Shown: positions 4,459 through 21,619 of the stretch, in pieces
Numbering within the stretch: the stretch's first letter is position 1
Layout of the letters: the number at the start of each line of letters is the position of its first letter
Notes under the pieces: model-generated
What the model saw: the letters and a program-made list of their open reading frames with translations, nothing else
Databases searched by the model: none
Told to the model about the DNA's origin: nothing
Origin: an uncultured Spirochaetota bacterium
GTDB lineage: Bacteria; Spirochaetota; Brevinematia; Brevinematales; JAOACQ01
Reading direction: 5' to 3'
DNA length: 64,000 nt
Assembly: GCA_963835575.1 (NCBI GenBank)
Contig: CAWIGG010000002.1
Coordinates: 1,760,001-1,824,000, forward strand
Program-made: the position numbers and the translations under genes

Positions 4459-5640
4459 ATGAGGAAAAAAGAGAAAATCAGCAGGGTCTCTAAACTGATT
4501 GTAATGTTTATTGCTTTTACTTTATTCATTTGTTTTATGCCGGGAACGGCCGGAGCTGCGGGAAATACCGTTAAAATAGGCGCCATCTTTTCTGTAACCG
4601 GGCCGGCTGCCTATTTAGGCGCTCCCGAAGAAAAGACAGCCGTAATGCTGGTGGAAGAAATCAATAAAAACGGCGGGATTAACGGCGCGCAGATTGAGCT
4701 CATCATTAAAGATTCCGGCGGAAGCCCTGAAAAGGCCATTTCCTTCGCGAAACAGCTTATTGAAGAAGACAAAGTTGCCGCCATCATCGGGCCGACAACA
4801 AGCGGCGAATCGATGGCCATAAAAGACCTCTGTGAAAAATCAAAAATGCCCCTTATTTCCTGCGCAGCTGCGGAAACCATAGTCGATCCGATAGCGCATT
4901 ATGTCTTTAAAACCCCCCAGAATGACAGCTATGTCGTGAAATGGATTTACGGAACAATGAAGAAGAAAGGCATAAAAAAGATCGCCGTAGTCTCTTCAAA
5001 CACCGGCTTCGGCGCCGGCGGAAAAGCCCAGCTTGAGAAATACGCCGCCGAATATGGAATTACCATAGTCATCTCGGAAGTTTATGATAAAGCCGCCACA
5101 GATCTTTCCGCTCTTCTGACCAAGGTTAAATCGACCGACGCGCAGGCTTTAGTCAACTGGTCCATTGAACCGGCGCAGTCCATTATCGCTAAAAACATGA
5201 AGCAGATCAATATGACCATACCCCTTTTCCAGAGCCATGGTTTCGGCAACATCAAATATGTTGAAGCGGCAGGCGAAGCCGCCGAAGGTATTATATTCCC
5301 CTGCGGAAGGCTTTTAATCGCCGAAGAACTGCCGGACACCAATCCCCAGAAGAAGCTCCTGATGGCTTATAAAACCGATTATGAAACAAAGTATAAGGAA
5401 CAGACCAGCACTTTCGGCGGCCATGCATATGACGCGATCCTTGTCCTGAAAACAGCTATTGAAATGTCAAAAAGCACAGACAGCGATAAGATCGTCGAAG
5501 CGATTGAGAAGATCACAAATCTACCCGGTACGGCCGGCATATTTAATTTTTCATCCAAAGACCATAACGGTCTAGGTATGGATTCGATTGAAATGCTGAC
5601 AGTAAAGAACGGCAAATTCACTCTGTATAAAGGCAAATAG
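4459..5640 (+). CDS. livK: LivJ/LivK-type ABC transporter substrate-binding protein
   Basis: Signal peptide, VKIGAIFSVTGPAA.LG, EINKNGGING, AIIGPTTS, HAYDA; first gene of a liv operon. Confidence 0.9.
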   Translation: MRKKEKISRVSKLIVMFIAFTLFICFMPGTAGAAGNTVKIGAIFSVTGPAAYLGAPEEKTAVMLVEEINKNGGINGAQIELIIKDSGGSPEKAISFAKQLIEEDKVAAIIGPTTSGESMAIKDLCEKSKMPLISCAAAETIVDPIAHYVFKTPQNDSYVVKWIYGTMKKKGIKKIAVVSSNTGFGAGGKAQLEKYAAEYGITIVISEVYDKAATDLSALLTKVKSTDAQALVNWSIEPAQSIIAKNMKQINMTIPLFQSHGFGNIKYVEAAGEAAEGIIFPCGRLLIAEELPDTNPQKKLLMAYKTDYETKYKEQTSTFGGHAYDAILVLKTAIEMSKSTDSDKIVEAIEKITNLPGTAGIFNFSSKDHNGLGMDSIEMLTVKNGKFTLYKGK

Positions 5641-5701
5641 AGAACGGTTATACTAAGAAACAAATTATGAGATCATAATTAAAATCAGTACAAATATATT
5701 A

Positions 5702-5728
5702 GGGAGGCGGCGTTTTAGCCGCCTCTTT
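5702..5728 (+). terminator. intercistronic hairpin / weak terminator
   Basis: GAGGCGGC-GTTTTA-GCCGCCTC followed by TTT, after the binding-protein gene. Confidence 0.55.
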
Positions 5729-5781
5729 ATATTAAAATACGCCGGGAGTGGTTAAAATAATTTAAAGGCAACGGGATCATC

Positions 5782-6870
5782 ATGAATTTTGAATTATTTA
5801 TGCAGTACCTTTTCTCCGGATTGACCTACGGAAGCATCTACGCGATTGTAGCGATCGGCTTTAATATTATTTATAATTCAACCGGCATCATCAATTTTGC
5901 CCAGGGCGAGTTTGTGATGCTGGGCGGGATGATGGCGTATTCCTTTTCGCAGTTTATGCCTCTCTATCTCGCGATCATTCTGGCGGTGCTCATAACAGCG
6001 GGCATCGGTTCACTCATCGAACTGATCTTCATCCGGAGTCTTTATAAATCCACTATCACGCACCTGAATATCATCTTCGGAGGACTGACATTACTGGCCG
6101 TGTCCATTATATACCGCGGCTCTGAAAGTTCCCCGTTTTCTTATATTATGATCACTTTAATTTCCATCATCATTATTCTGGCGGTACTGAACTGCCTCTG
6201 GTATTTATTCAAGCCCTTTCAAAAAATGTTTCAGAAAATCCGGAAGCCGGCTGTTCTGCAGATGATTGTTATTACCATCGGTCTGTCCATTATTTTAAGG
6301 GAGATCGCCCTGCATATCTGGGGAGAACAGGTTAAAACGGTCCCCTATTTTACAGGCAATGAAATATCATCCATCAGCATCCTGGGGGCCCATTTTTCAC
6401 CGCAGATCCTCTGGGTCATCGGCGTTACAATCCTGATCGTCTCCGGCCTGACGCTCTTTTTTAAATTCACTTTAACAGGACAGGCGATGCGCGGATGCTC
6501 GGCTGACAGGGAAGGCGCCAGCCTCTGCGGGATCAACACACAGCTTATGGTCAATCTTTCTTTCGCACTGAGCGCCGGGATCGGCGCGCTGGCCGGATGC
6601 GTTGTCGCGCCGCTGACGCAGACCCATTACGCCATCGGGGCGGACCTGGCCATAAAAGGCTTTACTGTGGCCATCTTCGGCGGCCTGGGGAACAGCATGG
6701 CGGCGGTTTTCGCCGGCCTTATACTGGGTCTTATCGAGTCATTTATCATAACCATATATCCTGAAGCTTATAAGGATGTTGCCGCGATCGTGATACTTTT
6801 ACTGGTCCTTTTCATCAAGCCGAGCGGACTGTTCGGCTCAAAGGAAGCCGGCGCGCTAAAGGAATTTTAA
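5782..6870 (+). CDS. livH: branched-chain amino acid-type ABC permease
   Basis: GSIYAIVAIGFNIIY, INFAQGEF, GQAMRG, GGLGN. Confidence 0.9.
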   Translation: MNFELFMQYLFSGLTYGSIYAIVAIGFNIIYNSTGIINFAQGEFVMLGGMMAYSFSQFMPLYLAIILAVLITAGIGSLIELIFIRSLYKSTITHLNIIFGGLTLLAVSIIYRGSESSPFSYIMITLISIIIILAVLNCLWYLFKPFQKMFQKIRKPAVLQMIVITIGLSIILREIALHIWGEQVKTVPYFTGNEISSISILGAHFSPQILWVIGVTILIVSGLTLFFKFTLTGQAMRGCSADREGASLCGINTQLMVNLSFALSAGIGALAGCVVAPLTQTHYAIGADLAIKGFTVAIFGGLGNSMAAVFAGLILGLIESFIITIYPEAYKDVAAIVILLLVLFIKPSGLFGSKEAGALKEF

Positions 6871-6871
6871 T

Positions 6872-7957
6872 ATGGATTTAAAACGCTATAAACCGGTCGG
6901 CTTACTGGCTGTTTTTATTATTGTCATTCCATTATTGACATCCCTTCTCGGGGTTAATTTTTATCTGACCCAGCTTACCATGTCGGCTTATTATCTTCTG
7001 GTTGCCCTGGGACTCTGCATGCTGATGGGTTATGCCGGTCAGATTTCACTGGGACAGGCCGCTTTTTTCGCTATCGGCGGTTATACATCGGCTTTTCTGA
7101 CAACCTTAAATTTTATGCCGTTTGCCGGATCACCTTTTATTAAATTCTGCGGCGTCATCGGAATAATACTCCAGGGTCAGAATGTCTACGGTGATAAAAT
7201 ACTTTATTTATCTCCCTGGATCGGATTTGCCGCCGCTGTCATTCTGACAGCGGGTATCGCCTTCCTTATTGGCATACCGGTTTTAAAACTTAAAGGACAT
7301 TACCTGGCCATGGCCACGCTCGGCTTCGGGATCATCATCGAAAAAATTGTCCGGGGAACAAAACTTTTCGGCGGAGCTGACGGTATAACAAACGTGCCGG
7401 CTTTCAGCCTTCTTCCCGGGATCAACGTCAGCGGCGAAGTTCAGGACAGGGTCATGAATTATTTTATCGCCTGGTTCTTGATAATCATCGGACTTGTACT
7501 GCTGATCAACCTTATCAATTCCAGGAACGGCCGGGCGCTCCGCGCGCTCCATGGAAGCGAGGAAGCGGCCGATTCCATGGGGATCAATACAGCCCTTTAT
7601 AAGCTTTATGTTTTTGTCATCGGGGCGGTTTTCGCGTCTGTCGCCGGAATATTCATGACCCATTACAACGGCAGCATCGGGCCGGGAGAAGCCAATATCA
7701 TAAAGTCCATCCGTTATGTCGCCATCGTCGCAGTCGGCGGCATGGCGAATCTCTGGGGCACCCTGATTATGGGCCTCATCCTCAATTTTTTATCCCTGCG
7801 CGGCGTGTTCGGCACCTACGATGACGCCGTCTTCGGAGCTATTCTCATTTTTGTCATGATCTTTTCGCCTGAAGGCTTTATCCGCAGGGATGTCCTGAAA
7901 AGCATATTACAATTTTTTAATAATAGAAAGAGTAAAAACAATGAATCTGGAAATTAA
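6872..7957 (+). CDS. livM: branched-chain amino acid-type ABC permease
   Basis: GYAGQISLGQAAFFAIGGY, LKGHYLAMATLGF, SRNGRALRA. Confidence 0.9.
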   Translation: MDLKRYKPVGLLAVFIIVIPLLTSLLGVNFYLTQLTMSAYYLLVALGLCMLMGYAGQISLGQAAFFAIGGYTSAFLTTLNFMPFAGSPFIKFCGVIGIILQGQNVYGDKILYLSPWIGFAAAVILTAGIAFLIGIPVLKLKGHYLAMATLGFGIIIEKIVRGTKLFGGADGITNVPAFSLLPGINVSGEVQDRVMNYFIAWFLIIIGLVLLINLINSRNGRALRALHGSEEAADSMGINTALYKLYVFVIGAVFASVAGIFMTHYNGSIGPGEANIIKSIRYVAIVAVGGMANLWGTLIMGLILNFLSLRGVFGTYDDAVFGAILIFVMIFSPEGFIRRDVLKSILQFFNNRKSKNNESGN

Positions 7958-8702
7958 AGAGCTGGACAAATTCTTCGGCGGGCTGCATGCTGTCAATCAG
8001 GTCAGCTTCGGCGTAAAAGCCGGTTTAATCAAGGCTGTTATCGGGCCGAACGGCGCCGGTAAAACCACCCTGTTTAACCTCATATCAGGATCAATAAAGC
8101 CCAGTTCGGGGCATGTCAGATTCAGGGGCGAAGACATCACAAACCTCAAGCCCTATCAAATCGCCCGCAAAGGTATCATCAGGACTTTTCAGAACCTGAA
8201 GCTGTTCAGGCATATGACAGTCCTGGAGAATGTCATGATCGGCAGGCACACCCGGAGCAAAGCCGGTTTTATTTCAGCCTTCCTCAATCTGCCATGGACA
8301 TGGAAGGAAGAGAGATCGATAAAAGAAGAGGCCCTGAAGGCTATCGAGCTTACGGGAATTAAGGACGTCTGTCATAAGGAAGCCGGGAGCCTCCCCTTCG
8401 GGAAGCAGAGGGCTGTGGAGCTCGCGCGCGCTCTGGCCTCCGAACCGACCTTATTGCTTCTGGACGAACCGGCGTCCGGCCTTAATATCCACGAAACAAA
8501 AGAGCTGTCGCGGCTCATTCTGGAAATCAGGGACAGAGGTATTACCATTTTAATCGTGGAGCATGATATGTCTCTGGTTATGGATATATCGGATGAAATA
8601 ACCGTCCTGAACTTCGGCCGTAAAATAGCCGAAGGTAAGCCGCATGAAATCCAGAAGAATAAAAAAGTAATTAATATTTATCTGGGTGATGAAAATGCTT
8701 AA
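7941..8702 (+). CDS. livG: ABC ATPase
   Basis: GPNGAGKTT, RTFQN, LPFGKQR, LLLDEP, VEHDM. Confidence 0.95.
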   Translation: MNLEIKELDKFFGGLHAVNQVSFGVKAGLIKAVIGPNGAGKTTLFNLISGSIKPSSGHVRFRGEDITNLKPYQIARKGIIRTFQNLKLFRHMTVLENVMIGRHTRSKAGFISAFLNLPWTWKEERSIKEEALKAIELTGIKDVCHKEAGSLPFGKQRAVELARALASEPTLLLLDEPASGLNIHETKELSRLILEIRDRGITILIVEHDMSLVMDISDEITVLNFGRKIAEGKPHEIQKNKKVINIYLGDENA

Positions 8703-9429
8703 AATAAGAAATCTTGAATCGGGATACGGCGGCCTGAGGGTTTTAAAAGGGATTTCCCTGCATGTTGTACCCGGAGAAATAGTGGCCATTATCGGAGCGA
8801 ACGGGGCGGGAAAATCGACATTATTGAATACCATATCCGGCCTGGTCAGGTCCTGGGCGGGCGATATTAATTTTAAAGAAAAGGAAATAACCAAGCTTCC
8901 TCCGGAGAAAATTGTAGCGCTCGGCTGTTCCATGGTGGCCGAAGGCAGAAAATTATTCGCTCCGATGACAGTCAGGGAAAATTTGATGCTGGGCAGTTAT
9001 ATACTATATAATAGAAGGGAGAAACAAAAAATCAAGGAAGAGCTCGCGTTTATTTATTCCATGTTCCCGGTGCTCAAGGAAAGGGAAAGCCAGCTCTCAG
9101 GTACGCTTTCGGGCGGGGAACAGCAGATGCTGGCGATCGGCAGAGCGCTGATGAGCTGTCCGGACCTGATCATGATGGACGAGCCGTCGATGGGGCTCGC
9201 GCCTCTGATCATTAAGAATATTTTCGGCGTCATCGCCAGGCTCAGGGACGAGGGAAAAACAATCCTGGTCGTGGAACAGAACGCGAAGGCTATTTTAAAA
9301 ATCGCCGATAGGGGCTATGTCATGGAAACGGGAAGCCTGATCCTGGAAGGTTCGAGCGGGGAACTTCTGAATAACCGCGATGTACAGAGAGCGTATCTCG
9401 GCAAGGATTATAAATCCATTGCCGGGTAA
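8695..9429 (+). CDS. livF: ABC ATPase
   Basis: GANGAGKST, LSGGEQQMLA, MDEPSMGLAP, VEQN; start could be 8689 or 8695. Confidence 0.95.
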   Translation: MLKIRNLESGYGGLRVLKGISLHVVPGEIVAIIGANGAGKSTLLNTISGLVRSWAGDINFKEKEITKLPPEKIVALGCSMVAEGRKLFAPMTVRENLMLGSYILYNRREKQKIKEELAFIYSMFPVLKERESQLSGTLSGGEQQMLAIGRALMSCPDLIMMDEPSMGLAPLIIKNIFGVIARLRDEGKTILVVEQNAKAILKIADRGYVMETGSLILEGSSGELLNNRDVQRAYLGKDYKSIAG

Positions 9430-9439
9430 TAATAAAATA

Positions 9440-9600
9440 GCCACGGAATTGCACGGAAAACCACGGAATATTACAGTTGTAATCTCGGAAGTTCGGATAA
9501 TCCGCTAATGCACGCGAATGGACGCTAAAGAAATATCTTTTTAAAATATATTCTCACTTATCATTTCTTCGCGTGACTTTGCGTGGCTTAGCGGAAGACC
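9440..9600. repeat. periodic repeat arms plus imperfect inverted pair
   Basis: GCCACGGAAT TGCACGGAAA ACCACGGAAT; CCGCTAATGCACGCGAATGGACGCTAAAGA ... TCTTCGCGTGACTTTGCGTGGCTTAGCGG. Confidence 0.7.
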
Positions 9601-9642
9601 AGTTGTTTATAGGAATAATCGGCACTGGAAAGGAGGCAATGT

Positions 9643-10935
9643 ATGATCTATGATAAAATTCATGAGTGCATGGCGCGGGAAGATCTGGAGCAGCTTCAGA
9701 TTGAAAGGCTCCAGGCGACATTAAACCGGGTCTATCAGAATGTCTCATTCTACAAAAATTCTTTCGATCAGAATAAGATCAATATTGAAAATATCAAATC
9801 CATAAAGGATTTGACCCGGCTTCCCTTTACCACCAGGGACGACCTCCGCCTGAGCTACCCCTATGATATGTTCGCTGTTCCGCTGCGGGACATCGTGAGG
9901 ATCCATTCCACATCCGGGACAACAGGAAAAGCTATTGTGGTCGGTTATACCAGTAATGACATCAGCATCTGGACTTCCCTCATCGCGCGGGTTTTGACCG
10001 CCGTCGAGATAACAGAGCATGATTTTGTCCAGATCGCCTTCAATTACAGCCTCGCGTCCGCCGGACTCGGGTTCCATTACGGCGCCGAAAAGATCGGCGC
10101 TTCCGTCATCCCTTCATCCAGCGAGAATATCCAGCGGCAGATAACGGTTATGAAGGATTATAAAACAACCGCCCTGATCAGTACTCCCGGCTATGCCCTG
10201 CATATCGGCAAAGTGCTGGAGGAGATGAACATTCATCCGGAAGAACTCAACCTCAAGACAGGCCTTTTTGGAGCGGAGCCCTGGAGCGAGAAACTCCGGA
10301 GCCAGATCGAAAAGAGCCTGCATATTAAAGCCTATGATAATTACGGCCTGACGGAACTGATCGGCCCGGGCATCTCATTTGAATGCCCCTATCGGAAAGG
10401 ACTTCATATCAATGAAGACCATTTTATCGCCGAAGTCATCGATCCGAAAACACTCAAGCGCCTGGATTTCGGACAGGAGGGCGAGCTGGTTTTCACAACA
10501 ATTACAAAACAGGGTTTTCCGCTCATCAGGTACAGGACAGGCGACATATCATCGCTATTAGAAGGCAAATGCGAATGCGGAAGGACGCTGGTAAGGATGA
10601 ACCGGCTGGCCGGAAGAACAGACGATATGATCATCATCGACGGCATCAATATTTTCCCGTCGCAGATTGAAGAGGCAATCCTGCAGATTGAAGGAGTGGA
10701 ACCTCATTATCTCATCATACTGGACAGGAAAGACGGCCTTGAAACAATGGAAATCCAGGTCGAGGCGTCCGCTTTCGATGAAATGAGGGAACTCGAGAAG
10801 CTGAAGACAAAACTTATCAACCATCTGGAGGCGACACTCGGCATCATGCCGAAAATAACCCTTGTCGAGCCTAAAACGATCAAGCGCTCGGAAGGAAAGA
10901 AGCTCAAGAGGATCATCGATAAGAGGGAGAAGTAG
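9643..10935 (+). CDS. paaK: phenylacetate--CoA ligase family protein
   Basis: YPYDMFAVP, RIHSTSGTTG, YGLTE, PLIRYRTGD, GRTDDM, NIFPSQIE. Confidence 0.9.
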   Translation: MIYDKIHECMAREDLEQLQIERLQATLNRVYQNVSFYKNSFDQNKINIENIKSIKDLTRLPFTTRDDLRLSYPYDMFAVPLRDIVRIHSTSGTTGKAIVVGYTSNDISIWTSLIARVLTAVEITEHDFVQIAFNYSLASAGLGFHYGAEKIGASVIPSSSENIQRQITVMKDYKTTALISTPGYALHIGKVLEEMNIHPEELNLKTGLFGAEPWSEKLRSQIEKSLHIKAYDNYGLTELIGPGISFECPYRKGLHINEDHFIAEVIDPKTLKRLDFGQEGELVFTTITKQGFPLIRYRTGDISSLLEGKCECGRTLVRMNRLAGRTDDMIIIDGINIFPSQIEEAILQIEGVEPHYLIILDRKDGLETMEIQVEASAFDEMRELEKLKTKLINHLEATLGIMPKITLVEPKTIKRSEGKKLKRIIDKREK

Positions 10936-10947
10936 GATAACGGGGAT

Positions 10948-11327
10948 GCCTCAGGCACAGAGGGATATTGTTTTAATTTGCCTTTATATATTTTGAACAT
11001 GGCTGGGATTGGTTCAACGCCCGGGTAATTTACCACGAAGACCACGAAGAGGACACTAAGAGCACGAAGATTTGTTGTTGCTTCATACTTCGTTTTTATC
11101 AACCACCCTTTATAGTTTAAAATTCCTTTTTTTTTTACCACAGAGATCACAGAGCTATTAATTGAATAAAAGCATTTGTGTGAGATTCTCTTTATTTGAG
11201 GGCCGCAGAGGGCACTGAGAGATGATGGGTTTAGTTTGCCTTTATATATTTTGAAGGATATCTTGGATTGTGTTAACACCTGTGGGTTAAACACGAAGAC
11301 CACGAAGAGGATACTAAGAACACGAAT
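10948..11327 (+). repeat. two ~120-bp degenerate direct repeats with 9-nt periodic CACGAAGA arrays
   Basis: TTTGCCTTTATATATTTTGAA...CACGAAGACCACGAAGAGGA(C/T)ACTAAGA(G/A)CACGAA occurs at ~10977-11070 and ~11235-11327. Confidence 0.8.
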
Positions 11328-11344
11328 CAAGAATGGGACATGGG

Positions 11345-11427
11345 ATAAGGTAGGGCGAGTGCTGAGTTCTGCAGGCCGTAGCGACTGAATGTAAGACAAG
11401 GAGCGGAGTGCAAACGCCGTGTTGGAC
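11345..11427 (-). mobile_element. truncated attC-like site of the TA cassette
   Basis: Minus strand GTCCAAC (RYYYAAC, 11427-11421) followed by ACGGCGTTTGCACTCCGCTCCT...TCGCCCT, homologous to the first arm of the 12062-12234 site. The second arm is absent. Confidence 0.7.
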
Positions 11428-11473
11428 GATACGCGCGGACCTCTAAATAAAAAAGCGCCACGGATAGCGCTAA

Positions 11474-11743
11474 TTAATAAATTTCATCATGTTTCCCAAT
11501 ATCGACTAGTATTGCTTTTTTATCATCATCAGTAAAATAAAATACTATTCTTAGATCATATTCTACTGTAAAACCCCATAAGTCTTTTAACTTTCCTTGA
11601 AGTTTATGAGTCTTTAATCTATTATCAAAAGGATTATCAATAAAAATTTCAATAATATCCCAAAATTCCTTTTCAATCTGCTTTCTACCAGATATTTGTT
11701 TTTTAAAGGCTCTTTTAAAAGATGAACTGAATGAAATTTCCAT
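11474..11743 (-). CDS. type II toxin, RelE/YafQ-family mRNA interferase
   Basis: SSSFKRAFKK, PFDNRLKTHKLQGKL, YDLRIVF, DIGKHDEIY. Confidence 0.9.
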   Translation of the reverse strand: MEISFSSSFKRAFKKQISGRKQIEKEFWDIIEIFIDNPFDNRLKTHKLQGKLKDLWGFTVEYDLRIVFYFTDDDKKAILVDIGKHDEIY

Positions 11744-11746
11744 AAA

Positions 11747-11956
11747 TTATCCAATTGATTTTTTTAAATCATTAATGTTTTTACTGAATTTTAAGTTTTG
11801 TTCTTTTTCTTCTTGCTTTGTTTTTAAATAATTTTTATAAATTTCCTCTCTTCTTTCTTCAATAATTGATTTTTCAATGATAAATTTAATTTCTTCTCTT
11901 TCATCTGTTGGTAAATCCCGAACAATTTCTACAACTTCTTCAAATGTTTTATTCAT
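11747..11956 (-). CDS. putative antitoxin
   Basis: Small acidic ORF ending 3 nt upstream of the toxin, with a GAGG RBS. Confidence 0.75.
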   Translation of the reverse strand: MNKTFEEVVEIVRDLPTDEREEIKFIIEKSIIEERREEIYKNYLKTKQEEKEQNLKFSKNINDLKKSIG

Positions 11957-11982
11957 AAAAGCCTCTTATTTAATATAGTATT

Positions 11983-12011
11983 ATTTTATATATGATAAAT
12001 AATAAAGTCAA
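11983..12011 (-). promoter_or_regulatory. sigma70-like promoter of the TA cassette
   Basis: TTGACT-17nt-TAAAAT on the minus strand. Confidence 0.6.
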
Positions 12012-12061
12012 TCGTTTTTCGCCACGGATGGTGAATGAAATAGTAAAATTCCGCGCGTTTC

Positions 12062-12234
12062 GCCCAATGTCAGGCGTTTGCGAAGCCGCTGAGAGCCGTA
12101 CCAGCTCCGCTGTAGGCGAAGCGGTTTGGTGAGCCCTGCGTTGCGCTTCTTCCGGCCTACTTACGGCAGGGCGAACCCGAGCACCGGAGCCGCCGTTAGC
12201 GGCGAGGAGCAGAGCGCTAAACGCCGGGTTGTAC
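12062..12234 (-). mobile_element. attC-like recombination site (173 bp)
   Basis: GC-rich island between AT-rich ORFs. Minus strand starts GTACAAC-CCGGCGTTT 12 nt after the stop of 12247..13140 and ends AAACGCC-TGAC-ATTGGGC (a GTTRRRY variant). Confidence 0.8.
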
Positions 12235-12246
12235 GCCGTGTCGTTT

Positions 12247-13140
12247 TCATTTAGGTATTAAAGCTATTAATGCAGGAATCTGTTGATATAAACCATTAGC
12301 AATCATACTAATAGTAACTTTTTCTAATATACTATAAATTACTTTTAGACTTTCTGAAATAAAGCTATTTTTTGGTCTTTTTGTTCCTGCTAAAGCTTTT
12401 ATTGTTTCAATTTCTTGTTTTAGTGAATCAATTTCTTCTTGCTTCAATTCTTTAATTTCATTAATTTTACTTTCGAGTTCATTTATAAATTCAATTATTG
12501 ATTTCAAATCATTGTTATTATAAGAATATGTTTGTGTCGATTGATTACTACCTTGTTGCAATTGTGAATAATTCATTGAACCTATAATATTGATAATAGT
12601 ACTTTTTGAAAAATGTTCTGTATCTTCATTAGGAAATTTATTAGCGTGTTCATATTCTTTTATTCCAGGATGAGTAATACTTACCATACCCCCAAGAGTT
12701 TCTCTCTTAACAAGACCTTCACTTTCAAGATATTGAAAAATTAATAGGCCAACATCTTCAGATATTTTTAAATCTTTTGATATATTTCTGAAATCAACAG
12801 AATAAATTTCATCAGCATTTGAAAGATTGTATAACCTTTCAAGAAACAAAAATCGTAATCTTTGATTTTCTTCAATTGTCATAGAACTAATTTCCCCCTT
12901 TAATTTTTTAGAAGGTTCTAATAAAAATAGTCCTTCTTCAGTAAATATAACACTCGATTTATTAACACTTATTATTCCATATTTTTCTAACGACTTTAAG
13001 GCAATTCCTAAATCTTCATTTCTCATTTTTACAGTATGTATTAAATTTGTTATCAAACATCCATTGCCAGTTTGTTCAGTATATTTTGATAATAATTTAA
13101 TTATGGCAGTTTCATTTTGTGTAAATTTGATAATATCCAT
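12247..13140 (-). CDS. cassette-borne hypothetical protein (two wHTH-like segments plus C-terminal coiled coil)
   Basis: ALKSLEKYGII and FQYLESEGLVK...ITHPG wHTH-like motifs, N/Q-rich linker, helical C-terminus; very AT-rich. Confidence 0.8.
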   Translation of the reverse strand: MDIIKFTQNETAIIKLLSKYTEQTGNGCLITNLIHTVKMRNEDLGIALKSLEKYGIISVNKSSVIFTEEGLFLLEPSKKLKGEISSMTIEENQRLRFLFLERLYNLSNADEIYSVDFRNISKDLKISEDVGLLIFQYLESEGLVKRETLGGMVSITHPGIKEYEHANKFPNEDTEHFSKSTIINIIGSMNYSQLQQGSNQSTQTYSYNNNDLKSIIEFINELESKINEIKELKQEEIDSLKQEIETIKALAGTKRPKNSFISESLKVIYSILEKVTISMIANGLYQQIPALIALIPK

Positions 13141-13165
13141 AAAATCCTTTTAATATCATAAAGCT

Positions 13166-13200
13166 GAAAACGGCATGGCGTCCAACTTATTATATATGAA
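13166..13200 (-). mobile_element. attI-like or solo GTTRRRY recombination core
   Basis: Minus strand TATATAATAA-GTTGGAC-GCCATGCCGTTTT (core 13186-13180). It is complementary to the cassette's own R'' end, and no attC hairpin lies upstream. Confidence 0.65.
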
Positions 13201-13321
13201 AAAAGGCATGCTTCCGCATGCCCCAAAGTTTTCCCTGAATCAATAAGCAGGCACTAAACAGCCCGGCTTTCTTCGCGAAATCCTGAGAACTTAATCCCCA
13301 TCCCTTAACACCAACCGGTTC

Positions 13322-13351
13322 AGTGTAGCACATTAACAGGGCGTTTGTCAA
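13322..13351 (-). promoter_or_regulatory. Pc-like cassette promoter
   Basis: TTGACA (13351-13346), 18 nt, then TACACT (13327-13322) with an extended -10 TG, pointing into the cassettes. Confidence 0.6.
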
Positions 13352-13545
13352 ATCAAAGAATCTCCGTGTTCTCCGCCCCCCGACGCCTGTCCCGAGCATA
13401 GCCGAGAGATGCCCCTTGTGTTAAAACCCCCGAAACGCACTATTAAAAGCCAGGCATTGATTAGTTTTAGAAGGCAACATAAAGTGTACTAAATCCTCAA
13501 AAATCCACCTAATCCGTGAAAATCTGTATGAAAAATCGGATATAA

Positions 13546-13581
13546 TAAAAAAGGGCAGTCTGACAGACTGCCCTTCTCTTT
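13546..13581 (-). terminator. intrinsic terminator of the GH12 gene
   Basis: AAGGGCAGTCTG/CAGACTGCCCTT stem with an A-tract on the left (U-tract on minus). Confidence 0.8.
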
Positions 13582-13600
13582 AAATTAGCTTATATCAAAC

Positions 13601-15337
13601 TTAGTTCGCTGTCATTGAAAAATTGTTGCAGGTAAATGTCAAAGGAACGCCGCCTGTTCCGCTGATTTCAAATCCGAATTGCATTGCGCCGCATGTGCCG
13701 CCGGCGCTGACCCAGCCCTGGGCCACAATCCAGTTAAGAACGGCTTTGATATCCACGGTGCCCTTGGTTATCTTCATCGGGGCCCAGGATCCGTCGGTCG
13801 AACTGACTGCAACAAGAGAAACCACGTTGTTGCCACCATGGTATACGTTCCAGGTGTATCCTCCGACATTGACGTTGGTCGCGCTCGGTATGGGATTTCC
13901 TGTGGAATCCCAACCGGCGGCTATGGGGCTGACATTACCGTTCTGATACATCCAGATCATGACTTCCGTCGGAACCCATAAATCGTAAGCGACTTCCCAA
14001 TTGCCGGTGGAAGGCACAGTGACATCAAAAGTGCTGGTAAAAGAACTGAGCGAGCTTATTGCCTTACCCACGTTGCTCAGGCCTGAGTTCGGATAGGACT
14101 TGACTCCGCTGGTGTCAGGCTGGGTGGAAACAACGTACCAGTTGCTGTAGGAGTAGGCTGTTAAAGTCTGGGAATTGGTGGCGCTTGTTCCCCAGACATC
14201 ATTATAGATAATGTATGCACCCAAAACGTATTTATCGTAGTTTCCGCTTCCGATAAAAGGCCCTTCGCCCATCGGGCCATTGGGAACGGTTCCGACTAAA
14301 AGCCAGGCCATGTATTGTCCGTTATTCAGTTCGGGATTAAGGTCATAAGCATAGCCCTGATCTTCATACATTTTTTGATTGTACTGGACCAGCATGCCGG
14401 GTGTGTTATAAACAATCTGGGAATTCCATATAGGATAATTAGTACCATAAACAGCAAGCGAACTGCCGGAACTGCTGCTGGCAGCTGTACTGGAAGCAAC
14501 GCTTGAACTGACAGCCACGCTGCTGGCGACCGAGCTCCTGCTGGAACTGGCGGCTATACTGCTGGCTACCGAGCTCCTGCTGGAACTGGCGGCTATACTG
14601 CTGGCTACCGAGCTCCTGCTGGAACTGGCGGCTATACTGCTGGCTACCGAACTTCTGCTGGAACTGGCGGCTATGCTGCTGGCGATCGAACTGATGCTGG
14701 AGACGGCTATCGATGAAACAACAGACGCAGCCGAACTGGTCGTGACGGTCCCGGGTTCAATACCCCAGGAAAGAGTCCCGCTGATGTAAAGAGTCACTTT
14801 GTTCCAATCAACATAAGTTGTTGAAGGATTATAGGAATAGTTCTTCGTATTGTCTATCGTCGACCAATCGCTCTTCCAGATCCTTCCCTGGATTTCCACC
14901 GATGCGCCCGCGGCCAGATTGCCCGCGCCGCTGGTGAATGAGATTTCCTGATACGCTTCTGCGCCCGCATTAGTTGGGCTCATGGCAGTGAAGACGTTCT
15001 GAACGTTGCCGTTTCCTACAGGGATATAATCGCATGCAAAGTTGTAGGAAGTACTACCCTGGTACGCTATATAATAGCGTATTTTTACGGTAGAAAGGGC
15101 TACCGCAGAGGTTCCCGTATTCACAATCGTAATTCTTTCATATATCTGGTTCTGTAGGGTCGCACCGCTCTGGAAGGTCTGAATTTTGACAGGCCCTGTA
15201 GCTTGTGCTTTAGAGACGCCGTTATCCGTGCTTTTCTGGCTATCAACAGCGGTCCGGTCCAGACTGCAGGCCACAAATACGAATAAAGAAACAATCAGAA
15301 ACAGAAAACAAAACCTCATACTTACTAAAATCTTCAT
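13601..15337 (-). CDS. lipoprotein endoglucanase: CBM3, Ser-rich linker, small CBM5/12-like module, GH12
   Basis: Lipobox FVAC; CBM3 motifs (VKIRYY, FACDY, SDWS, WNKVTLY, WGIEP); GH12 motifs (YNDVWG, VKSYPN, AYDLW, EVMIW, FGFEI). Confidence 0.85.
   Translation of the reverse strand: MKILVSMRFCFLFLIVSLFVFVACSLDRTAVDSQKSTDNGVSKAQATGPVKIQTFQSGATLQNQIYERITIVNTGTSAVALSTVKIRYYIAYQGSTSYNFACDYIPVGNGNVQNVFTAMSPTNAGAEAYQEISFTSGAGNLAAGASVEIQGRIWKSDWSTIDNTKNYSYNPSTTYVDWNKVTLYISGTLSWGIEPGTVTTSSAASVVSSIAVSSISSIASSIAASSSRSSVASSIAASSSRSSVASSIAASSSRSSVASSIAASSSRSSVASSVAVSSSVASSTAASSSSGSSLAVYGTNYPIWNSQIVYNTPGMLVQYNQKMYEDQGYAYDLNPELNNGQYMAWLLVGTVPNGPMGEGPFIGSGNYDKYVLGAYIIYNDVWGTSATNSQTLTAYSYSNWYVVSTQPDTSGVKSYPNSGLSNVGKAISSLSSFTSTFDVTVPSTGNWEVAYDLWVPTEVMIWMYQNGNVSPIAAGWDSTGNPIPSATNVNVGGYTWNVYHGGNNVVSLVAVSSTDGSWAPMKITKGTVDIKAVLNWIVAQGWVSAGGTCGAMQFGFEISGTGGVPLTFTCNNFSMTAN
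14521..14685 (-). repeat. 39-bp tandem repeat x4 encoding SSRSSVASSIAAS
   Basis: Unit TGCTGGC(G/T)ACCGAGCTCCTGCTGGAACTGGCGGCTATAC repeated nearly identically. Confidence 0.95.
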
Positions 15338-15556
15338 TTTTTCCTCCTTTTTATTATTAATATTTAGAAAATAACAGCCGTAAACCTTCTAACGGGTATT
15401 CCAAGACAGCCGGATAAAATCTATTAATTGTACAATGAAATCCAGGATTTGATATAGTACCCAAGGTATGGATTTATACGTACTTATAGTATGGTATTTT
15501 AACAGTAATTCTTATCAAACCGTATTTCTATTGTTTTCATATTTCGGCTGGTGTAG

Positions 15557-15775
15557 ATGAAGCGGGCGGACCTTAGAGCTTCGCTCCCTTCGACAAGCTT
15601 GGTTGGAGAGCTTTTCAAACCACGCCACAAGTTCGCGTGGATTCGCGGGTTACTCAGTTTTCCCCTGTTTGTGCTCTTCGAGCCCCTTCGCGTTGCTTCG
15701 TGCATCGCCCCAATTTCTGTGCCTTCTGTGCCTCCGTGACAAACCCTGTTTGTGTTCTTCGTGCTCTTCGAGGTA
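15557..15775. repeat. cluster of 9-nt periodic repeat arms and a CCTTCGACAAGCT motif
   Basis: TTTGTGCTCTTCGAG, TTTCTGTGCCTTCTGTGCCTCCGTG, TTTGTGTTCTTCGTGCTCTTCGAGG; reverse-complement relatives of the 11032-11070 array. Confidence 0.7.
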
Positions 15776-15785
15776 ATTCCCAGCC

Positions 15786-16634
15786 TTATTTATTATATTT
15801 ATTAAGCAGCGTGTCCGCTTTGATCCAGTCCGGCTGAAAATTGTTGGTTTCCAGATACTGGTAGTATTCGCTGACAAGCTGGTAATATTGTGAATCCTTA
15901 TTTTCCTTCAGAAAATTCTCATAACTTTTTTTTAAAAGGTCTTTTTTGATACCTTCCTCTCCGCCGGTAATATAAGTCATCACTTGGTCCTTGAGAATAT
16001 CTTTCGCTTCTTCCGTCACGGAACTGCCGGGATAATCTTTAAGATAATTCTCCCATTCAACTATTTTATTACGTACCGCTTCCCAGTCCGGCGGAGTGTC
16101 CGATTGTTCATAATCAGCGGTAATTTCCTCATTCTCCATTTCAAGATATTTTTCCATTGCCTGGCTAAGATAACCAAAAAAGTTTTTCCGGATATAATCA
16201 AAACTCATATAAAACCCGATCCCGTCCTCGCCCGCGCTGACAAAAATTCCTTTTTTTTCCAGAAACAGCAGATATTCCTTAGTTTTCTTTTTCATTCCCG
16301 TCTCTGGTTTTATATGATACATATCTTTGCCGGCATTATCCAGAATATCTTCATCAACTCCGTTTCCGCTGATCCTGCCTCCCTCGCTGTTCAAAGCGTC
16401 ATCAACCAATAGCTGCCATTCTTTAAAAGCCGTATCGGCGGACGCAAAATCAGTTTTAGCCGAGAATATTTCTTTGAATATTTTTACCGCTTCATTAATG
16501 GAGTCCAGATTGTCTTCATCCAGATCCCCGACAGCATCTTTGTATTGTAACAGAAGGGTTTCAGAATAGTTCTGCGCATATAAACCAAAGAGAATAATAA
16601 ATTCAATAATAAAAATTTTTATAAGGTCTTTCAT
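15786..16634 (-). CDS. secreted acidic hypothetical protein
   Basis: Signal-peptide-like N-terminus, 282-aa helical acidic ORF. Confidence 0.8.
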   Translation of the reverse strand: MKDLIKIFIIEFIILFGLYAQNYSETLLLQYKDAVGDLDEDNLDSINEAVKIFKEIFSAKTDFASADTAFKEWQLLVDDALNSEGGRISGNGVDEDILDNAGKDMYHIKPETGMKKKTKEYLLFLEKKGIFVSAGEDGIGFYMSFDYIRKNFFGYLSQAMEKYLEMENEEITADYEQSDTPPDWEAVRNKIVEWENYLKDYPGSSVTEEAKDILKDQVMTYITGGEEGIKKDLLKKSYENFLKENKDSQYYQLVSEYYQYLETNNFQPDWIKADTLLNKYNK

Positions 16635-16674
16635 AGAATCCAGCCATTATTTTAATTATTTAAAAAAATCAGTA

Positions 16675-19000
16675 TTATTTTTTCTTTCTTTGTTTTTCTT
16701 CATAGAGTTTTTTATCCGCTATTCCGATCAATTCATTAAAGCTGTATTTATCATCGCTTTTGACAGATATATAACCGATACTTATGGATACCGGATACGC
16801 TTTTTTTGAAAGCGCATTATAATCGTTCAAAACAGTCTGCATCTATTTCTTGAGCAGTTCGGCATCACCTTCGGCCGTATCGACGGCCAGCACGGTAAAT
16901 TCATCTCCTCCGATGCGCGCGATGATATCAACGGACCGGAAACTATTTTTAAGCAGCTGGGCGGCTTTTTTCAGCGCAAAATCGCCCTCCTTATGTCCGT
17001 ACGAATCATTGATTTTTTTCAAACCATCCATATCACAGTAAAAAAGCATCAAGTTTTTATGGTTTCTATTAGCATAGAAAAGCTGCTGTTCACCGAGCGT
17101 CAGGAAACCCCTTCTGTTGTAAAAACCGGTCAATTCATCCTTCAGGGAAAGGTCATGGAGAATCTCATTATATCTCTCCAATTTATCCCATAGCCTGGCT
17201 TAATTTCTTTTCAGCGCTTTTTCTTTCTTTTATTTCATCTTTCAGATACTGCGCCTGCTGAGATATTTTTTCAATCAGCAGGATCAGTCTGATGGTGGAG
17301 CTGAGCTCAAGGCAGATTTTATCATAAGTATCGATATTCTTCAGATATTCATTCAAGTCCAGAATAATAAAACCCTGGCGTTCGTTTCTTTGATAGAGTG
17401 ATTGGACAACAAAGAAAAACCGTGAATTTTGCGGATAGAATTTATCGGGAATGAGATCGCAGGTTTTAAAAATGACCGCTTCTTCATTTAAATCCGCTCT
17501 GCCCTTTTCATTAAAACCGAGAATAAGGCGGGAAATATCCAGAGGTTTTTCCGGATTTTGATAGAGTGAAAGATGGCATGTATTTACTCCCAATTCTGTT
17601 AAAACATCATAAATTCTTATGACCAGATCATCAAGACCGTCCACATCCGTCAGTCTCCCGCTCATGGCTGTCAGTTTGCTGAATTGAAGGGCGGCGTTCA
17701 TTTCACGCCGGACTGTCTCTTTATGAATTCTTTCCTCGACAATAATCCTCATCTGGTGAAAGATATCCTCCAGAAAAAGACTGTTTTGCGGATCCATGCG
17801 GCAGCATAATGCGTTTCTTCTCAAGCATGATACAAATTTATAAAGAAGGGAAATGTCCAGATTTTTCGAAACCGCCCATAAAATCATTTTATTCCAGTAA
17901 TACAGGTATTTTTCCAGATTATGCCGCTTATACGATTCCACAAGAGCCGCGCAGAGCAGCTTGATCCAGTTTAACATTTCGGATTTAATACCGGAATATT
18001 TCTTCGCAGACAGGCAGTATTCCATGTCTTCAAGGATTCTGCCCCGGTTTTGAGTAAACATTTCCTCAAAAGATAACGGCTGAATCTCTTTTCCCCAGAC
18101 TGAAGCCTCGAGAACCCCCGGCAGCTGGCATCCGCATGATTCCCTGATGACAATTTCCGTCGGCAGATAAACATCTTTCGGGGGACTTTTATCAGTCAGA
18201 ACATCCAGAAGAATTTCCACGGCTTTTCTGCCCTGTTCATAAATGGGCTGACGGACTGTTGTCAATGAAGACAGCCGGCTGTTTTCTATATCATCAAAAC
18301 CGACAACAAAAGTGTCCCGGGGAACCTGTATGCCGCGCCTGGATAATTCCTCGATGGCGCCCATTGCCATATCATCATTGGACGCGACAATGCAGTCAAA
18401 CTCGACTTTCCGGTTATCCAGGAGCTCCTTAATGGCATTCCTTCCGGATAGACTCATAAAATTCCCTTCAATAATCAGCTTTTTATCCAGCGGAATATTC
18501 CGGGATTTCAAGAATTTATAATAAGTGTTCAGTCTGCAATTTGACGCGGCATTTTCTTTCGGGCCTGTAATAAAAGCGATCTTTTTATAATGATGGTTTG
18601 TTACAAGATGATCCAGAAGATCGGTTAATCCTTTTTCGCCACTTATCAAAATGCTGTAATAATCATCAAATTGAGCCGAGACGCTGACTATCTTCAGGCT
18701 TTCATACCGTTTGAGAAAAAGAGCGAATCCTTTATTGCCGATAAAACTCTGAAGAGAATCGGATAAGACGATCAGGCCGTCAATCCTGTTCTTGAATATA
18801 AAATCAAAGAGCAAATTTTTCTTTTCTTCCCACGGGTCCGGCGAATTGAGGCGGCCCGTGATAAAACAGACAAGATTTATCTGAGAGCTTTCGGCAAAAT
18901 CCATGATGCCGGCCAGAACGTTTTGATGATAACCGGAATAAGCCCAGTCGATCAAAATACCAAAAGTAAACTGAGTTTTGATTTCTTTTAAATTTTTCAT
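16675..19000 (-). pseudogene. LacI-type sugar-sensing domain fused to a GGDEF diguanylate cyclase, with two lesions
   Basis: Removing one G at 17187-17189 joins LSQAM-DKLERYNEILHD. An in-frame TAG at 16843-16845 is followed by the rest of the GGDEF domain (SISIG...ADKKLYEEK) to TAA at 16675. Confidence 0.85.
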
Positions 19001-19225
19001 ACCGTCTGCAACTTAATATTTTATTAACAATATTTTGACTTCCTGCGCTAAAAATGGCAATAAAAGAGAGTTGTTTTTTAATTTTGAATAAAATCATTTC
19101 AAAAACGATTTTATAAATTGTCTTTTTTTTAAGGAATAATTACTGTTTTTCTTTTATTATTGTTTTTTTTTCCTGGCAGTATTATAATTCACAGGGTATT
19201 ATGGTTATTGTATTTCAATCAAACA

Positions 19226-21619
19226 ATGAAATTTGATATTTTAATTTCTATTCTTGCAGCAATCTGGTTCAGCATGACAGCTCTTTATATAGTCTTTGCG
19301 CGCTCCCGTCTGCCGGCATGGAAAAGCAGTGTTGTACTGCTTCTCGCATGCGCCGAATTGACGCTGTCAAGGGCCATGCTGGGCATCAGCACGGATTATA
19401 CGGCCAGGCTCTTCTGGTATAAAATAAGCTGCGCCGGTTTAACGATCGCGCCGGCGGCCTTTTTGAGCCAGGCTTTTTTTTACAGCGGTATTTCCCGCAG
19501 GCTGCCTTTATTCATATTATTAGGCCTGTGCCTCTTCCCGGCCGCGACCATCGGGATTGTCTTTACCAATGAATTTCACGGCTGGGTCTGGAATCCGGCC
19601 AGTACGGCGCAAATCATTAACTCAATGAATTTGCCTCACCTTACGGATGTGGGATTCTGGTATTGGGTCCTGACTGCATATAACTTCCTGATGATAAGCG
19701 CCGGCTGCTTTATTTTAATCCGTTTAATGGCCCGTTCGCCGGGACTATACTTCCGGCAGGCCGGCAGTATGGTCGCTTCAGCCGTATTTGTCACATTCGG
19801 GATCAGCATGGATATTACCGGAATAAGCCCGCTGCCTCCTTTTACCGCCGCTATTACAGGACTGGCCGTCGGCGGTATAACTTCCGTCTTCGCATTAATT
19901 CCCCTCCGCCGGCAATACATACTTCCCGATGCCCAATACGCCGTTTTCAACAGCATCAGCGACGGCATAATTGTTCTCGACGGCGGCAACCGCATCGTGG
20001 AAATGAACCCGGCCGCCGAAAAACTGCTGGATCAATCGGCGCCGCACTATATATCCAAACCGGCGGAACATCTTCTGCCGGAAATAAAAAATTTCCTCAA
20101 TAGCAGTAAAGTTGAAGACCGGATGATGATTATCGAGCATGAAAGTACGCGGCGGACATTCAACCTGAGATTGACCGCGATCCAGGACTGGAAAAAATCC
20201 ATCGCCAATCAGGTTATAATCATGACCGATATCACCGACAGCAAGCGTGTGGAAGCGGAGCTGAAAGCAGAACGGGAAGCCGAAAAGAATTTTTCCGAAA
20301 AGCTGACCATCCTGGCCGCAGTAACCAACAAACTTTCCAAGACCCATACACTGGATGAATTCTGCCGGCGCGCGGTAGAAGCCGGCCGGGATGAACTGGG
20401 TTTTGACCGCCTGTCCATGTGGTTTGTCAGCGAAGACCGTTCCGACATGATCGGGACATACGGTACAGGCGCAGACGGCCGGACAACCGATGAAAGAAAT
20501 TCCCATTATACAATAGTCCAGACATCGCGATTATGGCCGATCATTCAGGGTAAGGCCGCTCTTCACCGCTTTGAAGAAGCGCCTTTATATCAGGACGGCC
20601 TGCAGATAGGATCCGGTATGCGCGTGGCGGCGGGACTCTGGGACGGCGAAACCGTCATCGGTTTTCTCAGCGTCGATAACCTGATCAACAAACGGCCTTT
20701 TACCGGCCATGACTGCGAGCTGCTGCGCCTTTACGCGCTGGCCTTGGGCCATCTCTGCACTCTCAAGCGCGCGCAGGAGAAGCTGACCAATCTGACCGAA
20801 GCGCTGGAACTGCGTGTGGAAGGGCGCACAGCCGAGCTGCAGCTTGCTAATGAGGACCTGGCGAGGGTCCTCCGCGCGAAAGATGAGTTTCTGGCCTGCA
20901 TTAGCCATGAATTGCGGACTCCCCTCACCAGCATACTCGGTTTGACAGAGATGCTGGCCGATCAAATTTACGGCCCTCTGAACGAAAGCCAGATACAGGC
21001 CCTCCTGACTGTGAACGACAGCAGTCAGCTTCTAATGACGCTTATCAATGATGTCCTCGACATAGCCAAAGCGGAGGCGGGAAAACTCGAGTTGAAAATA
21101 GAGCCGGTTTTCGTACCGGAGGTCTGCATGGCCGGCCAGCGGCTTATTTCCGTACAGGCCGGCATGAAAAAAATCAACCCTGCCCTGAAACTCGACCCGG
21201 CTGTCACAATTCTCTATGCGGATGAACGCCGCCTGAAACAGATACTGGTCAACCTCCTCAGTAACGCCGTCAAATTCACATCCGAAGGCGGCCAGATCGG
21301 CCTGGAAGTTACCGGCGACACTGATAAAAATGAAGTCTATTTTACAGTATGGGATACAGGCGTCGGCATCTCCGCCGATAATCAGACTCGCTTGTTCCAG
21401 CCGTTTGTTCAGGTGGATAACTCAATAGCGCCAACAGCCGGAAGTTCCGGACTGGGACTTTCGATTGTAAAGAGCATGACCGAACTGCATGGAGGCAGGG
21501 TTTCAGTGGAAAGCAAAGGCATTCCCGGACGCGGCAGCCGTTTTATCATTACCCTGCCCTGGAAAACCCGTCCGCAGGAGGAAATCGATCAAGGGCATTT
21601 CCATCCCTCACCAGTTTGA
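19226..21619 (+). CDS. sensor histidine kinase (7TM, PAS, GAF, HisKA, HATPase)
   Basis: FTNEFHGWVW 7TM motif, MNPAA PAS, SHELRTPL, NLLSNAVKFT, DTGVGI, GLGL; ATG 19226 is the likely start. Confidence 0.9.
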   Translation: MKFDILISILAAIWFSMTALYIVFARSRLPAWKSSVVLLLACAELTLSRAMLGISTDYTARLFWYKISCAGLTIAPAAFLSQAFFYSGISRRLPLFILLGLCLFPAATIGIVFTNEFHGWVWNPASTAQIINSMNLPHLTDVGFWYWVLTAYNFLMISAGCFILIRLMARSPGLYFRQAGSMVASAVFVTFGISMDITGISPLPPFTAAITGLAVGGITSVFALIPLRRQYILPDAQYAVFNSISDGIIVLDGGNRIVEMNPAAEKLLDQSAPHYISKPAEHLLPEIKNFLNSSKVEDRMMIIEHESTRRTFNLRLTAIQDWKKSIANQVIIMTDITDSKRVEAELKAEREAEKNFSEKLTILAAVTNKLSKTHTLDEFCRRAVEAGRDELGFDRLSMWFVSEDRSDMIGTYGTGADGRTTDERNSHYTIVQTSRLWPIIQGKAALHRFEEAPLYQDGLQIGSGMRVAAGLWDGETVIGFLSVDNLINKRPFTGHDCELLRLYALALGHLCTLKRAQEKLTNLTEALELRVEGRTAELQLANEDLARVLRAKDEFLACISHELRTPLTSILGLTEMLADQIYGPLNESQIQALLTVNDSSQLLMTLINDVLDIAKAEAGKLELKIEPVFVPEVCMAGQRLISVQAGMKKINPALKLDPAVTILYADERRLKQILVNLLSNAVKFTSEGGQIGLEVTGDTDKNEVYFTVWDTGVGISADNQTRLFQPFVQVDNSIAPTAGSSGLGLSIVKSMTELHGGRVSVESKGIPGRGSRFIITLPWKTRPQEEIDQGHFHPSPV

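Follow-up and report, generated by a model that had tools for sequence, protein, structure and literature searches.

How do gene cassettes come to lie behind a precise recombination junction in a stretch of DNA that holds no recombinase? The question is raised by a locus at positions 11345 to 13351 of a 64,000-nucleotide stretch, hereafter the window, from an uncultured Spirochaetota bacterium. The window is C2:1760001-1824000 of the genome labelled G000 (assembly 4.39 Mb, 94% complete); C1 to C7 denote contigs of this genome, and G002 to G008 other genomes compared. A preliminary description of the locus proposed an integron-type expression site, composed of a Pc promoter, an attI-like core and two cassettes, and serviced in trans by a distant IntI integrase. 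We think it probable that the locus is a decaying two-cassette orphan array, loaded in trans at an attI-core-like site by a tyrosine recombinase that lacks the IntI insertion.

The two units are real mobile cassettes. Cassette 1 starts at a G/TT at 13186 on the minus strand, to which all stranded features of the locus belong, and carries an open reading frame (ORF1) of 297 aa (12247..13140). It ends in attC1 (12062..12234, 173 bp), with an R'' box reading GTACAAC, a degenerate R' box (ATT) and an outer arm to 12249. Cassette 2 carries a toxin-antitoxin (TA) pair and ends in a remnant, attC2 (11352..11427, outer arm to 11439), which retains R'' and the left arm and has lost the right arm and R'. 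The coordinates first assigned to the promoter, G/TT, ORF and attC hold: the -35 box lies at 13351-13346, followed by an 18-bp spacer and by TG plus TACACT ending at 13322. Likewise, the extended inverted repeats reported at the cassette ends are present, with complementarity of 17/20 for cassette 1 and 16/20 for cassette 2.

Both units belong to a genome-wide attC family. An iterated profile found 43 attC-like stretches in the genome, and among 37 complete sites the 33 distinct ones have lengths of 138-223 bp with a median of 170. Published attC sites measure 57-141 bp (PMC12901181), a range exceeded by attC1 and by the family. RYYYAAC...GTTRRRY cores and cognate R''/R' pairing are present family-wide, at least 10 bottom-strand arm pairs are found in 29 of the 33 distinct sites, and the inner stems co-vary across 27 sites, scoring 9.3 where permutations average 5.4 and reach at most 6.8. 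In the predicted bottom-strand folds, 22 of 27 family sites and the circle junction of cassette 1 form a hairpin whose arms pair around an unpaired central spacer, and the arm folds of family sites show bulges.

The preliminary description also suggested that this might be a new attC family with complementarity running past the 7-bp core. Cassettes for this comparison, 19 in number, were defined by position alone; five with an insertion sequence (IS)-like end in place of the cassette end were left out, and 14 distinct cassettes, window cassette 2 included, were kept. In cognate ends, positions 1-9 pair, positions 10-11 are mostly unpaired, and positions 12-19 pair again, matching at frequencies of 0.71-0.93 compared to 0.22-0.35 in non-cognate ends. 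The outer-arm score is 7.8, versus a mean of 2.9 and a maximum of 5.6 over 5000 permutations. As positions 12-19 pair in cognate but not in non-cognate ends, the outer extension is a family trait; the suggestion is thus supported, with complementarity that is cassette-specific across all 14 cassettes. The IS-like ends lie at the AAC of cassette ends (C6:170627, the C4:970214+1722 region, C2:2043945 and C3:390), the first two belonging to the cassettes that follow C6:171585 and C4:971075. The arrays also hold several copies of a 428-bp cassette with no long ORF, at C6:425622-425195, C7:4636-4209 and C2:2031347-2031774.

Which enzyme might have handled these sites? No tyrosine recombinase is nearby, as had been noted: PF00589 has no match in the window, and the nearest on the contig is ~0.5 Mb away. 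The proposed distant canonical IntI was not found, since all 37 matches to TIGR02249 in the genome fall below the cut-off, making an insertion-less IntI relative the likely enzyme. Arrays on C6, C7 and C1 begin directly behind a co-oriented 351-aa tyrosine recombinase (the C1 copy contains a stop), and a 47%-identical paralogue heads another array at C2:47 kb. The recombinase scores 212 bits against the TIGR02249 cut-off of 265. Its best solved relative is IntI4, compared to which it is ~42 residues shorter in the IntI insertion region, and 90 residues separate the catalytic motifs in six of seven family proteins, the remaining one not having been parsed. C6 and C7 are 99.7% identical over 5.8 kb up to the G/TT and continue into different first cassettes, while C1 ends on that same G; the three may be variants of one locus, and cassette order varies either way. 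Of 35 genomes from the order, 8 contain relatives of the recombinase; the four congeners, at E up to 1e-40, contain none. The backbone that holds recombinase and attI on C1 (L105, 3794-11157) may be a mobilisable element, as it also encodes a TrwC relaxase/helicase beside the recombinase, a helix-turn-helix repressor, a ParA-like ATPase and fragments of N6-methylase.

The junction itself (13180..13201) has C at -12, TAT at -8 to -6 and A at -1. Its assignment as attI-like stands in part: the 15-bp core resembles the attI cores adjacent to recombinases, but the upstream accessory repeats are absent. Ten 5' junctions were aligned, two recombinase-adjacent types and eight orphans, and all ten have C-12, T-8, A-7, T-6 and A-1. 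The same core lies behind related recombinases at 4 of 8 loci in the order (two of those without it end at a contig edge) and at 2 of 3 loci from other phyla. We scored 120,722 GTT sites with a matrix derived from six recombinase-adjacent cores alone. The ten cassette-bearing orphan heads rank 3, 6, 16, 21, 36, 41, 82, 392 (the window), 1247 and 5778, placing nine of them in the top 1.1%. A strict junction motif gave nine matches versus 1.1 expected, but was derived from six of those nine, and hence we rely on the independent matrix. The targets chosen at orphan heads thus appear much closer to attI than to the GWT motif of attG sites. The window site is matched by neither recombinase-adjacent attI, and chances are about even between two origins of its core, a sequence resembling attI by accident at the tail of a terminator and what is left of an earlier promoter+attI copy.

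Integrase-less attI heads are found elsewhere in the genome. A satellite profile built from four of them returned 11 matches at E up to 0.002, namely the four seeds, six further copies without integrase, and the promoter+attI belonging to the C2:47k recombinase, which is in register with the satellites from -35 box to G/TT (E 2e-4). A reverse search with this last promoter+attI alone as query recovered no satellite, and hence the homology is moderate. The window is absent from the 17 matches obtained with the profile at E up to 10. The genome holds about ten integrase-less copies, several of them joined to a word-repeat element, at C6:171672-171584, C4:596761-596848, C4:599116-599173, C4:629894-629807, C2:1055510-1055597, C4:914102, C4:517703, C4:914878, C4:893330 and C4:592548. 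Among them, only C6:171585 has a cognate cassette end, and a decayed attC lies downstream of C4:596847. Beyond these copies, C2:2028353 is a repeat-bearing attI without recombinase whose first cassette is shared with the C2:47k array, and in G004 one attI head without integrase carries a cognate cassette. A family recombinase was found within 6 kb at none of 19 sites checked, one of which has a XerC/D-like gene 5.4 kb away. An exact-pattern scan of metagenomes for the satellite promoter motif gave 0 stretches.

The word-repeat element (60-70 bp, 70 full copies in the genome; 13488..13554 in the window, minus strand) lies upstream of many orphan cassette heads. It is found within 450 bp upstream of 7 of 10 heads versus 36 of 1681 comparable gene starts; as two of these seven were detected through the element, the fair count is 5 of 8. 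A second group of orphan heads (C2:1250440, C5:159045, C4:971075, C4:370813, C4:210196) has the order word element, CAGGAT array (in three cases), promoter 58-69 bp upstream, attI core, cassette start. Some attI heads lie inside arrays, downstream of an attC arm (C2:2027988-2028353; L046 3283-2676, minus strand), where attC x attI excision could carry a promoter+attI unit elsewhere. At six of the ten orphan heads, one of these being a doubtful case, a promoter-like site lies within 120 bp and no terminator is present; two others, the window and C3:170856, have a terminator just before the G/TT. The idea of a satellite attI with its own Pc fits other loci better than the window.

Upstream of the window junction, the promoter taken for a Pc (13322..13351; sigma-70-like TTGACA-18-(TG)TACACT, score 10/12) does not simply read into cassette 1. 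Instead, it opens a putative RNA or leader of ~120 nt (13199..13316), closed by a strong intrinsic terminator that the preliminary description had overlooked (13224-13199; 9-bp stem plus T6, -14.7 kcal/mol) and that ends 12 bp before the crossover. The search for further copies of promoter and site, which had been proposed earlier, returned two paralogues of the promoter-RNA-terminator unit, at C2:1415594 (85%) and C2:248196 (70%). Promoter and terminator hairpin are conserved in all three copies. Both paralogues depart from the window sequence exactly at the T-run and have no G/TT, attC or cassettes. The unit matches no Rfam family (three weak sub-gathering matches all lie off it), was not found in 11 family genomes by BLAST or in 150 phylum genomes with a three-sequence model, and folds with a z of -0.8. 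Neither a conserved small ORF nor, in the three-way alignment, a conserved anti-terminator was seen by eye, and exact-pattern scans of metagenome and viral contigs gave 0 stretches with the terminator motif. The genome contains two families of such promoter-to-terminator units of ~85-125 nt heading variable genes (AlbA_2, HXXEE, Eco57I-type restriction-modification, FRG), one with three copies (window 13351-13199, C2:1415594, C2:248196) and one with four (C3:170990, C3:176267, C4:515788, C4:594809).

Both attC sites of the window are damaged. The crossover of attC1 reads ATT, not GTT, and its bottom strand (12062-12234), which the preliminary description had proposed to fold, is predicted to fold poorly in place: it has 2.3 expected arm pairs, compared to 11-18.6 in 22 of 27 family sites, and is no better than shuffles (z of -0.9 and -0.4). 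The reconstructed circle junction of cassette 1, by contrast, folds as one long hairpin with ~25 arm pairs (z -2.5, 100 shuffles), as expected if the circular form was the substrate. Homology of attC2 to the family runs from 11427 to ~11352, the left 45% of a site, and thereafter gives way to word-repeat arrays with 258-bp direct-repeat spacing (10967..11326, no strand assigned), which occupy the place of the lost right half. With attC1 among the worst folders and attC2 truncated, there is no sign of current servicing of the locus. The G-to-A change at the attC1 crossover and the loss of half of attC2 probably froze the array.

We propose the following route by which the locus could have been loaded. 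An insertion-less tyrosine recombinase would act in trans on the folded bottom-strand attC of circular cassettes, with the short core at 13186 as its double-stranded partner; this loading step is inferred from sequence comparison. The TA cassette would have entered first and the winged-helix/AbiTi-like cassette second. In the circle, the cassette-specific outer arms would add ~8-12 bp of stem past the R box, and integration would separate them. The upstream promoter would mainly make its own short RNA, so that cassette 1 would receive read-through at most, while the TA cassette would use its own promoter and probably stabilise the island. More broadly, the genome may host a dispersed network, in which an insertion-less recombinase, stems lengthened by outer arms and many integrase-less docking sites act together, many of these sites having spread with the word-repeat element and the window being one of them, silenced or attenuated by the terminator of a small RNA. 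We hold this wider picture more tentatively, at somewhat less than an even chance.

Several observations weigh against the decaying orphan array, and some of them favour a satellite platform that still works: the terminated unit would serve as a leader, leaky or regulated (an attenuated Pc), and the core as a minimal attI at which cassettes are still captured in trans. A gene start, consisting of a ribosome-binding site and an ATG, lies 20 nt beyond the T-run in the C2:1415594 paralogue. This suggests that transcripts reading past the terminator can be of use, and the promoter may still serve cassette 1. Moreover, C3:170856, like the window, is an orphan head behind a terminated unit, there of the different, four-copy type; with two of ten heads sharing the promoter-RNA-terminator-core layout, chance alone explains it less well. 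Both window cassettes entered at one point and in one orientation, and integrase-less promoter+attI copies are real, in G000 as well as, once, in G004. We nevertheless judge a working platform unlikely: the hairpin is strong and kept in all three copies, inspection by eye showed no conserved anti-terminator, the paralogues are cassette-free, and the site itself lacks the accessory attI repeats and is followed by two damaged attC sites. The orphan-array reading has further points to answer. The window core is a moderate match, with 391 GTT sites scoring better, most of them unoccupied. Neither an empty allele nor other cassette content at the locus was found among the genomes compared. Finally, it is gene position that suggests that the insertion-less recombinase, and not a canonical IntI missing from the 94%-complete assembly, handles the attC sites.

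Alternatively, IS activity or a deletion could have relocated or stranded a block of a larger array, of which the locus is what remains, with the recombinase gene and most of attI lost. CALINs (attC clusters that have no integron-integrase) arise in this way (PMC4889954), the arrays of this genome are heavily interrupted by IS elements, and attC2 is cut mid-site. However, no recombinase remnant lies within 6 kb of the locus at E up to 10, no transposase ORF was evident when the ORF list for window 5000-20000 was inspected by eye, without a scan, and the left junction falls exactly at the G/TT behind core-like sequence; we consider a stranded fragment improbable. The notion that these are not cassettes at all, the genes being foreign ones bracketed by word repeats or repetitive extragenic palindrome (REP)-like repeats mimicking attC, is largely refuted and deserves very little credence. 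Word repeats do flank the island, and attC1, taken alone, is not above shuffles and is longer than the published range (PMC12901181), but mimicry does not account for the family-wide AAC/GTT geometry, the covariation, the arrays directly behind recombinases, the shuffled cassette order, or the presence of the same cassette in an array of another species.

That shared cassette is the one with the TA pair. It has a promoter-like site (11983..12011, TTGACT-17-TAAAAT, in a region conserved in the G004 copy), a putative 69-aa antitoxin (11747..11956), an 89-aa YafQ/RelE-family toxin (11474..11743; PF15738 at 42.2 bits versus a cut-off of 30, TIGR02385 also above cut-off) and a terminator-like hairpin (11454..11471). 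As in type II pairs, the RelE/YafQ toxin domain is preceded by a small ORF; this putative antitoxin belongs to no Pfam family and is assigned by position and by homologues in G004, G003 and G008. The cassette recurs in the congener G004 (83% over 596 bp), with a matching start and behind another attC arm; G003 and G008 carry the TA genes without attC matches. Type II TA cassettes have a stabilising role in chromosomal arrays. Cassettes with RelE/YafQ pairs share with the window pair the antitoxin-toxin order, a promoter of their own and carriage on a cassette, and differ in that the window antitoxin lacks a Pfam family.

For ORF1, 1381 relatives were found at E up to 0.001; it has no Pfam family above cut-off and only unnamed Atlas neighbours. 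Its structure model (mean pLDDT 89.8) comprises two winged-helix units and a helical C-terminal domain, and Foldseek ranks winged-helix proteins highest, without any match reaching E 0.001. The C-terminal part matches two PADLOC models, AbiTi (E 1e-10) and PDC-M14B. Among 82 aligned relatives, all drawn from 150 listed, 61 match the former and up to 78 the latter. ORF1 is thus a candidate defence-related protein, a role that we regard as a lead only.

As to the surroundings, the GH12 label given to the upstream gene was not confirmed, as Pfam returned CBM_3 only and NCBIfam a sub-cut-off PRK06215 match; the 578-aa protein (window 13601-15337, minus strand) combines a signal-like N-terminus with CBM3 and, after a long linker of Ser/Ala repeats, a C-terminal domain resembling PRK06215. 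Downstream lies an acyl-CoA ligase gene, close homologues of which in G002, G004 and G006 have other neighbours and no attC match. A 30-bp inverted repeat (70%) around the island (11007-11036 / 13325-13354) is probably due to chance.

With one complete and one half attC and no integrase nearby, the locus qualifies as a CALIN, and works like one formed by secondary-site insertion. It lacks the enzyme, the attC length, the full attI and the open Pc of a canonical integron. This route to a CALIN has been described (PMC4889954; 10.1101/2025.06.18.660453), and trans-mobilisable CALINs and secondary-site insertion beside resident promoters are already in print (10.1101/2022.09.11.507474; PMC4889954; 10.1101/2025.06.18.660453). 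CALINs and their single-attC counterparts, SALINs (PMC4889954; 10.1101/2022.09.11.507474), resemble the window in having cassettes and attC sites with no integrase nearby, a potential for mobilisation in trans and a proposed secondary-site origin. The window differs in its 173-bp attC with cassette-specific outer arms, in an enzyme without the IntI domain and in its attI-core-like 5' junction. The attG sites of IntI (10.1101/2022.09.11.507474) are similar in that insertion occurs at G/TT off the platform and expression comes from a resident promoter. However, attG sites have a three-base GWT consensus unlike attI, whereas the consensus that the orphan junctions here have in common with the cognate attI core spans 12-15 bases, which brings them closer to the lambda-type off-target sites with which that study contrasts attG. 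The class 1 attI1+Pc platform and delta-attI cassettes (PMC12901181) likewise present an R box at G/TT and an upstream L-like box, and a truncated attI can recombine; in the window, direct repeats are absent and a terminator stands in place of an open Pc, and delta-attI sites lie within mobile-integron arrays.

An additional domain serves to define integron integrases (PMC8352920). Given this definition and the shorter attC sites expected, standard tools would probably overlook the system together with the genes it carries, which in the window are a TA pair and a candidate defence protein. Our literature search, outside subscription journals and bioRxiv supplements, found neither arrays of this kind described with an insertion-less enzyme nor any report of scattered attI heads. 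The longer cognate stem is a candidate substitute for the missing domain, provided that the insertion-less enzyme does recombine attC sites in folded form. The window is a weak, decayed example of the system, and C6:171585, C2:2028353, C2:1250440 and C5:159045 are better cases. The chromosomal integrons of Treponema (PMC3607928) are similar in that the recombinase is transcribed towards attI and the cassettes and some attC sites reach 115-132 bp. There, the enzymes are treated as IntI and one attI per integron is assumed; here, the enzyme is insertion-less, the median attC is 170 bp and attI-like heads are scattered. Such docking sites, if true, would change the picture of one attI per integron.

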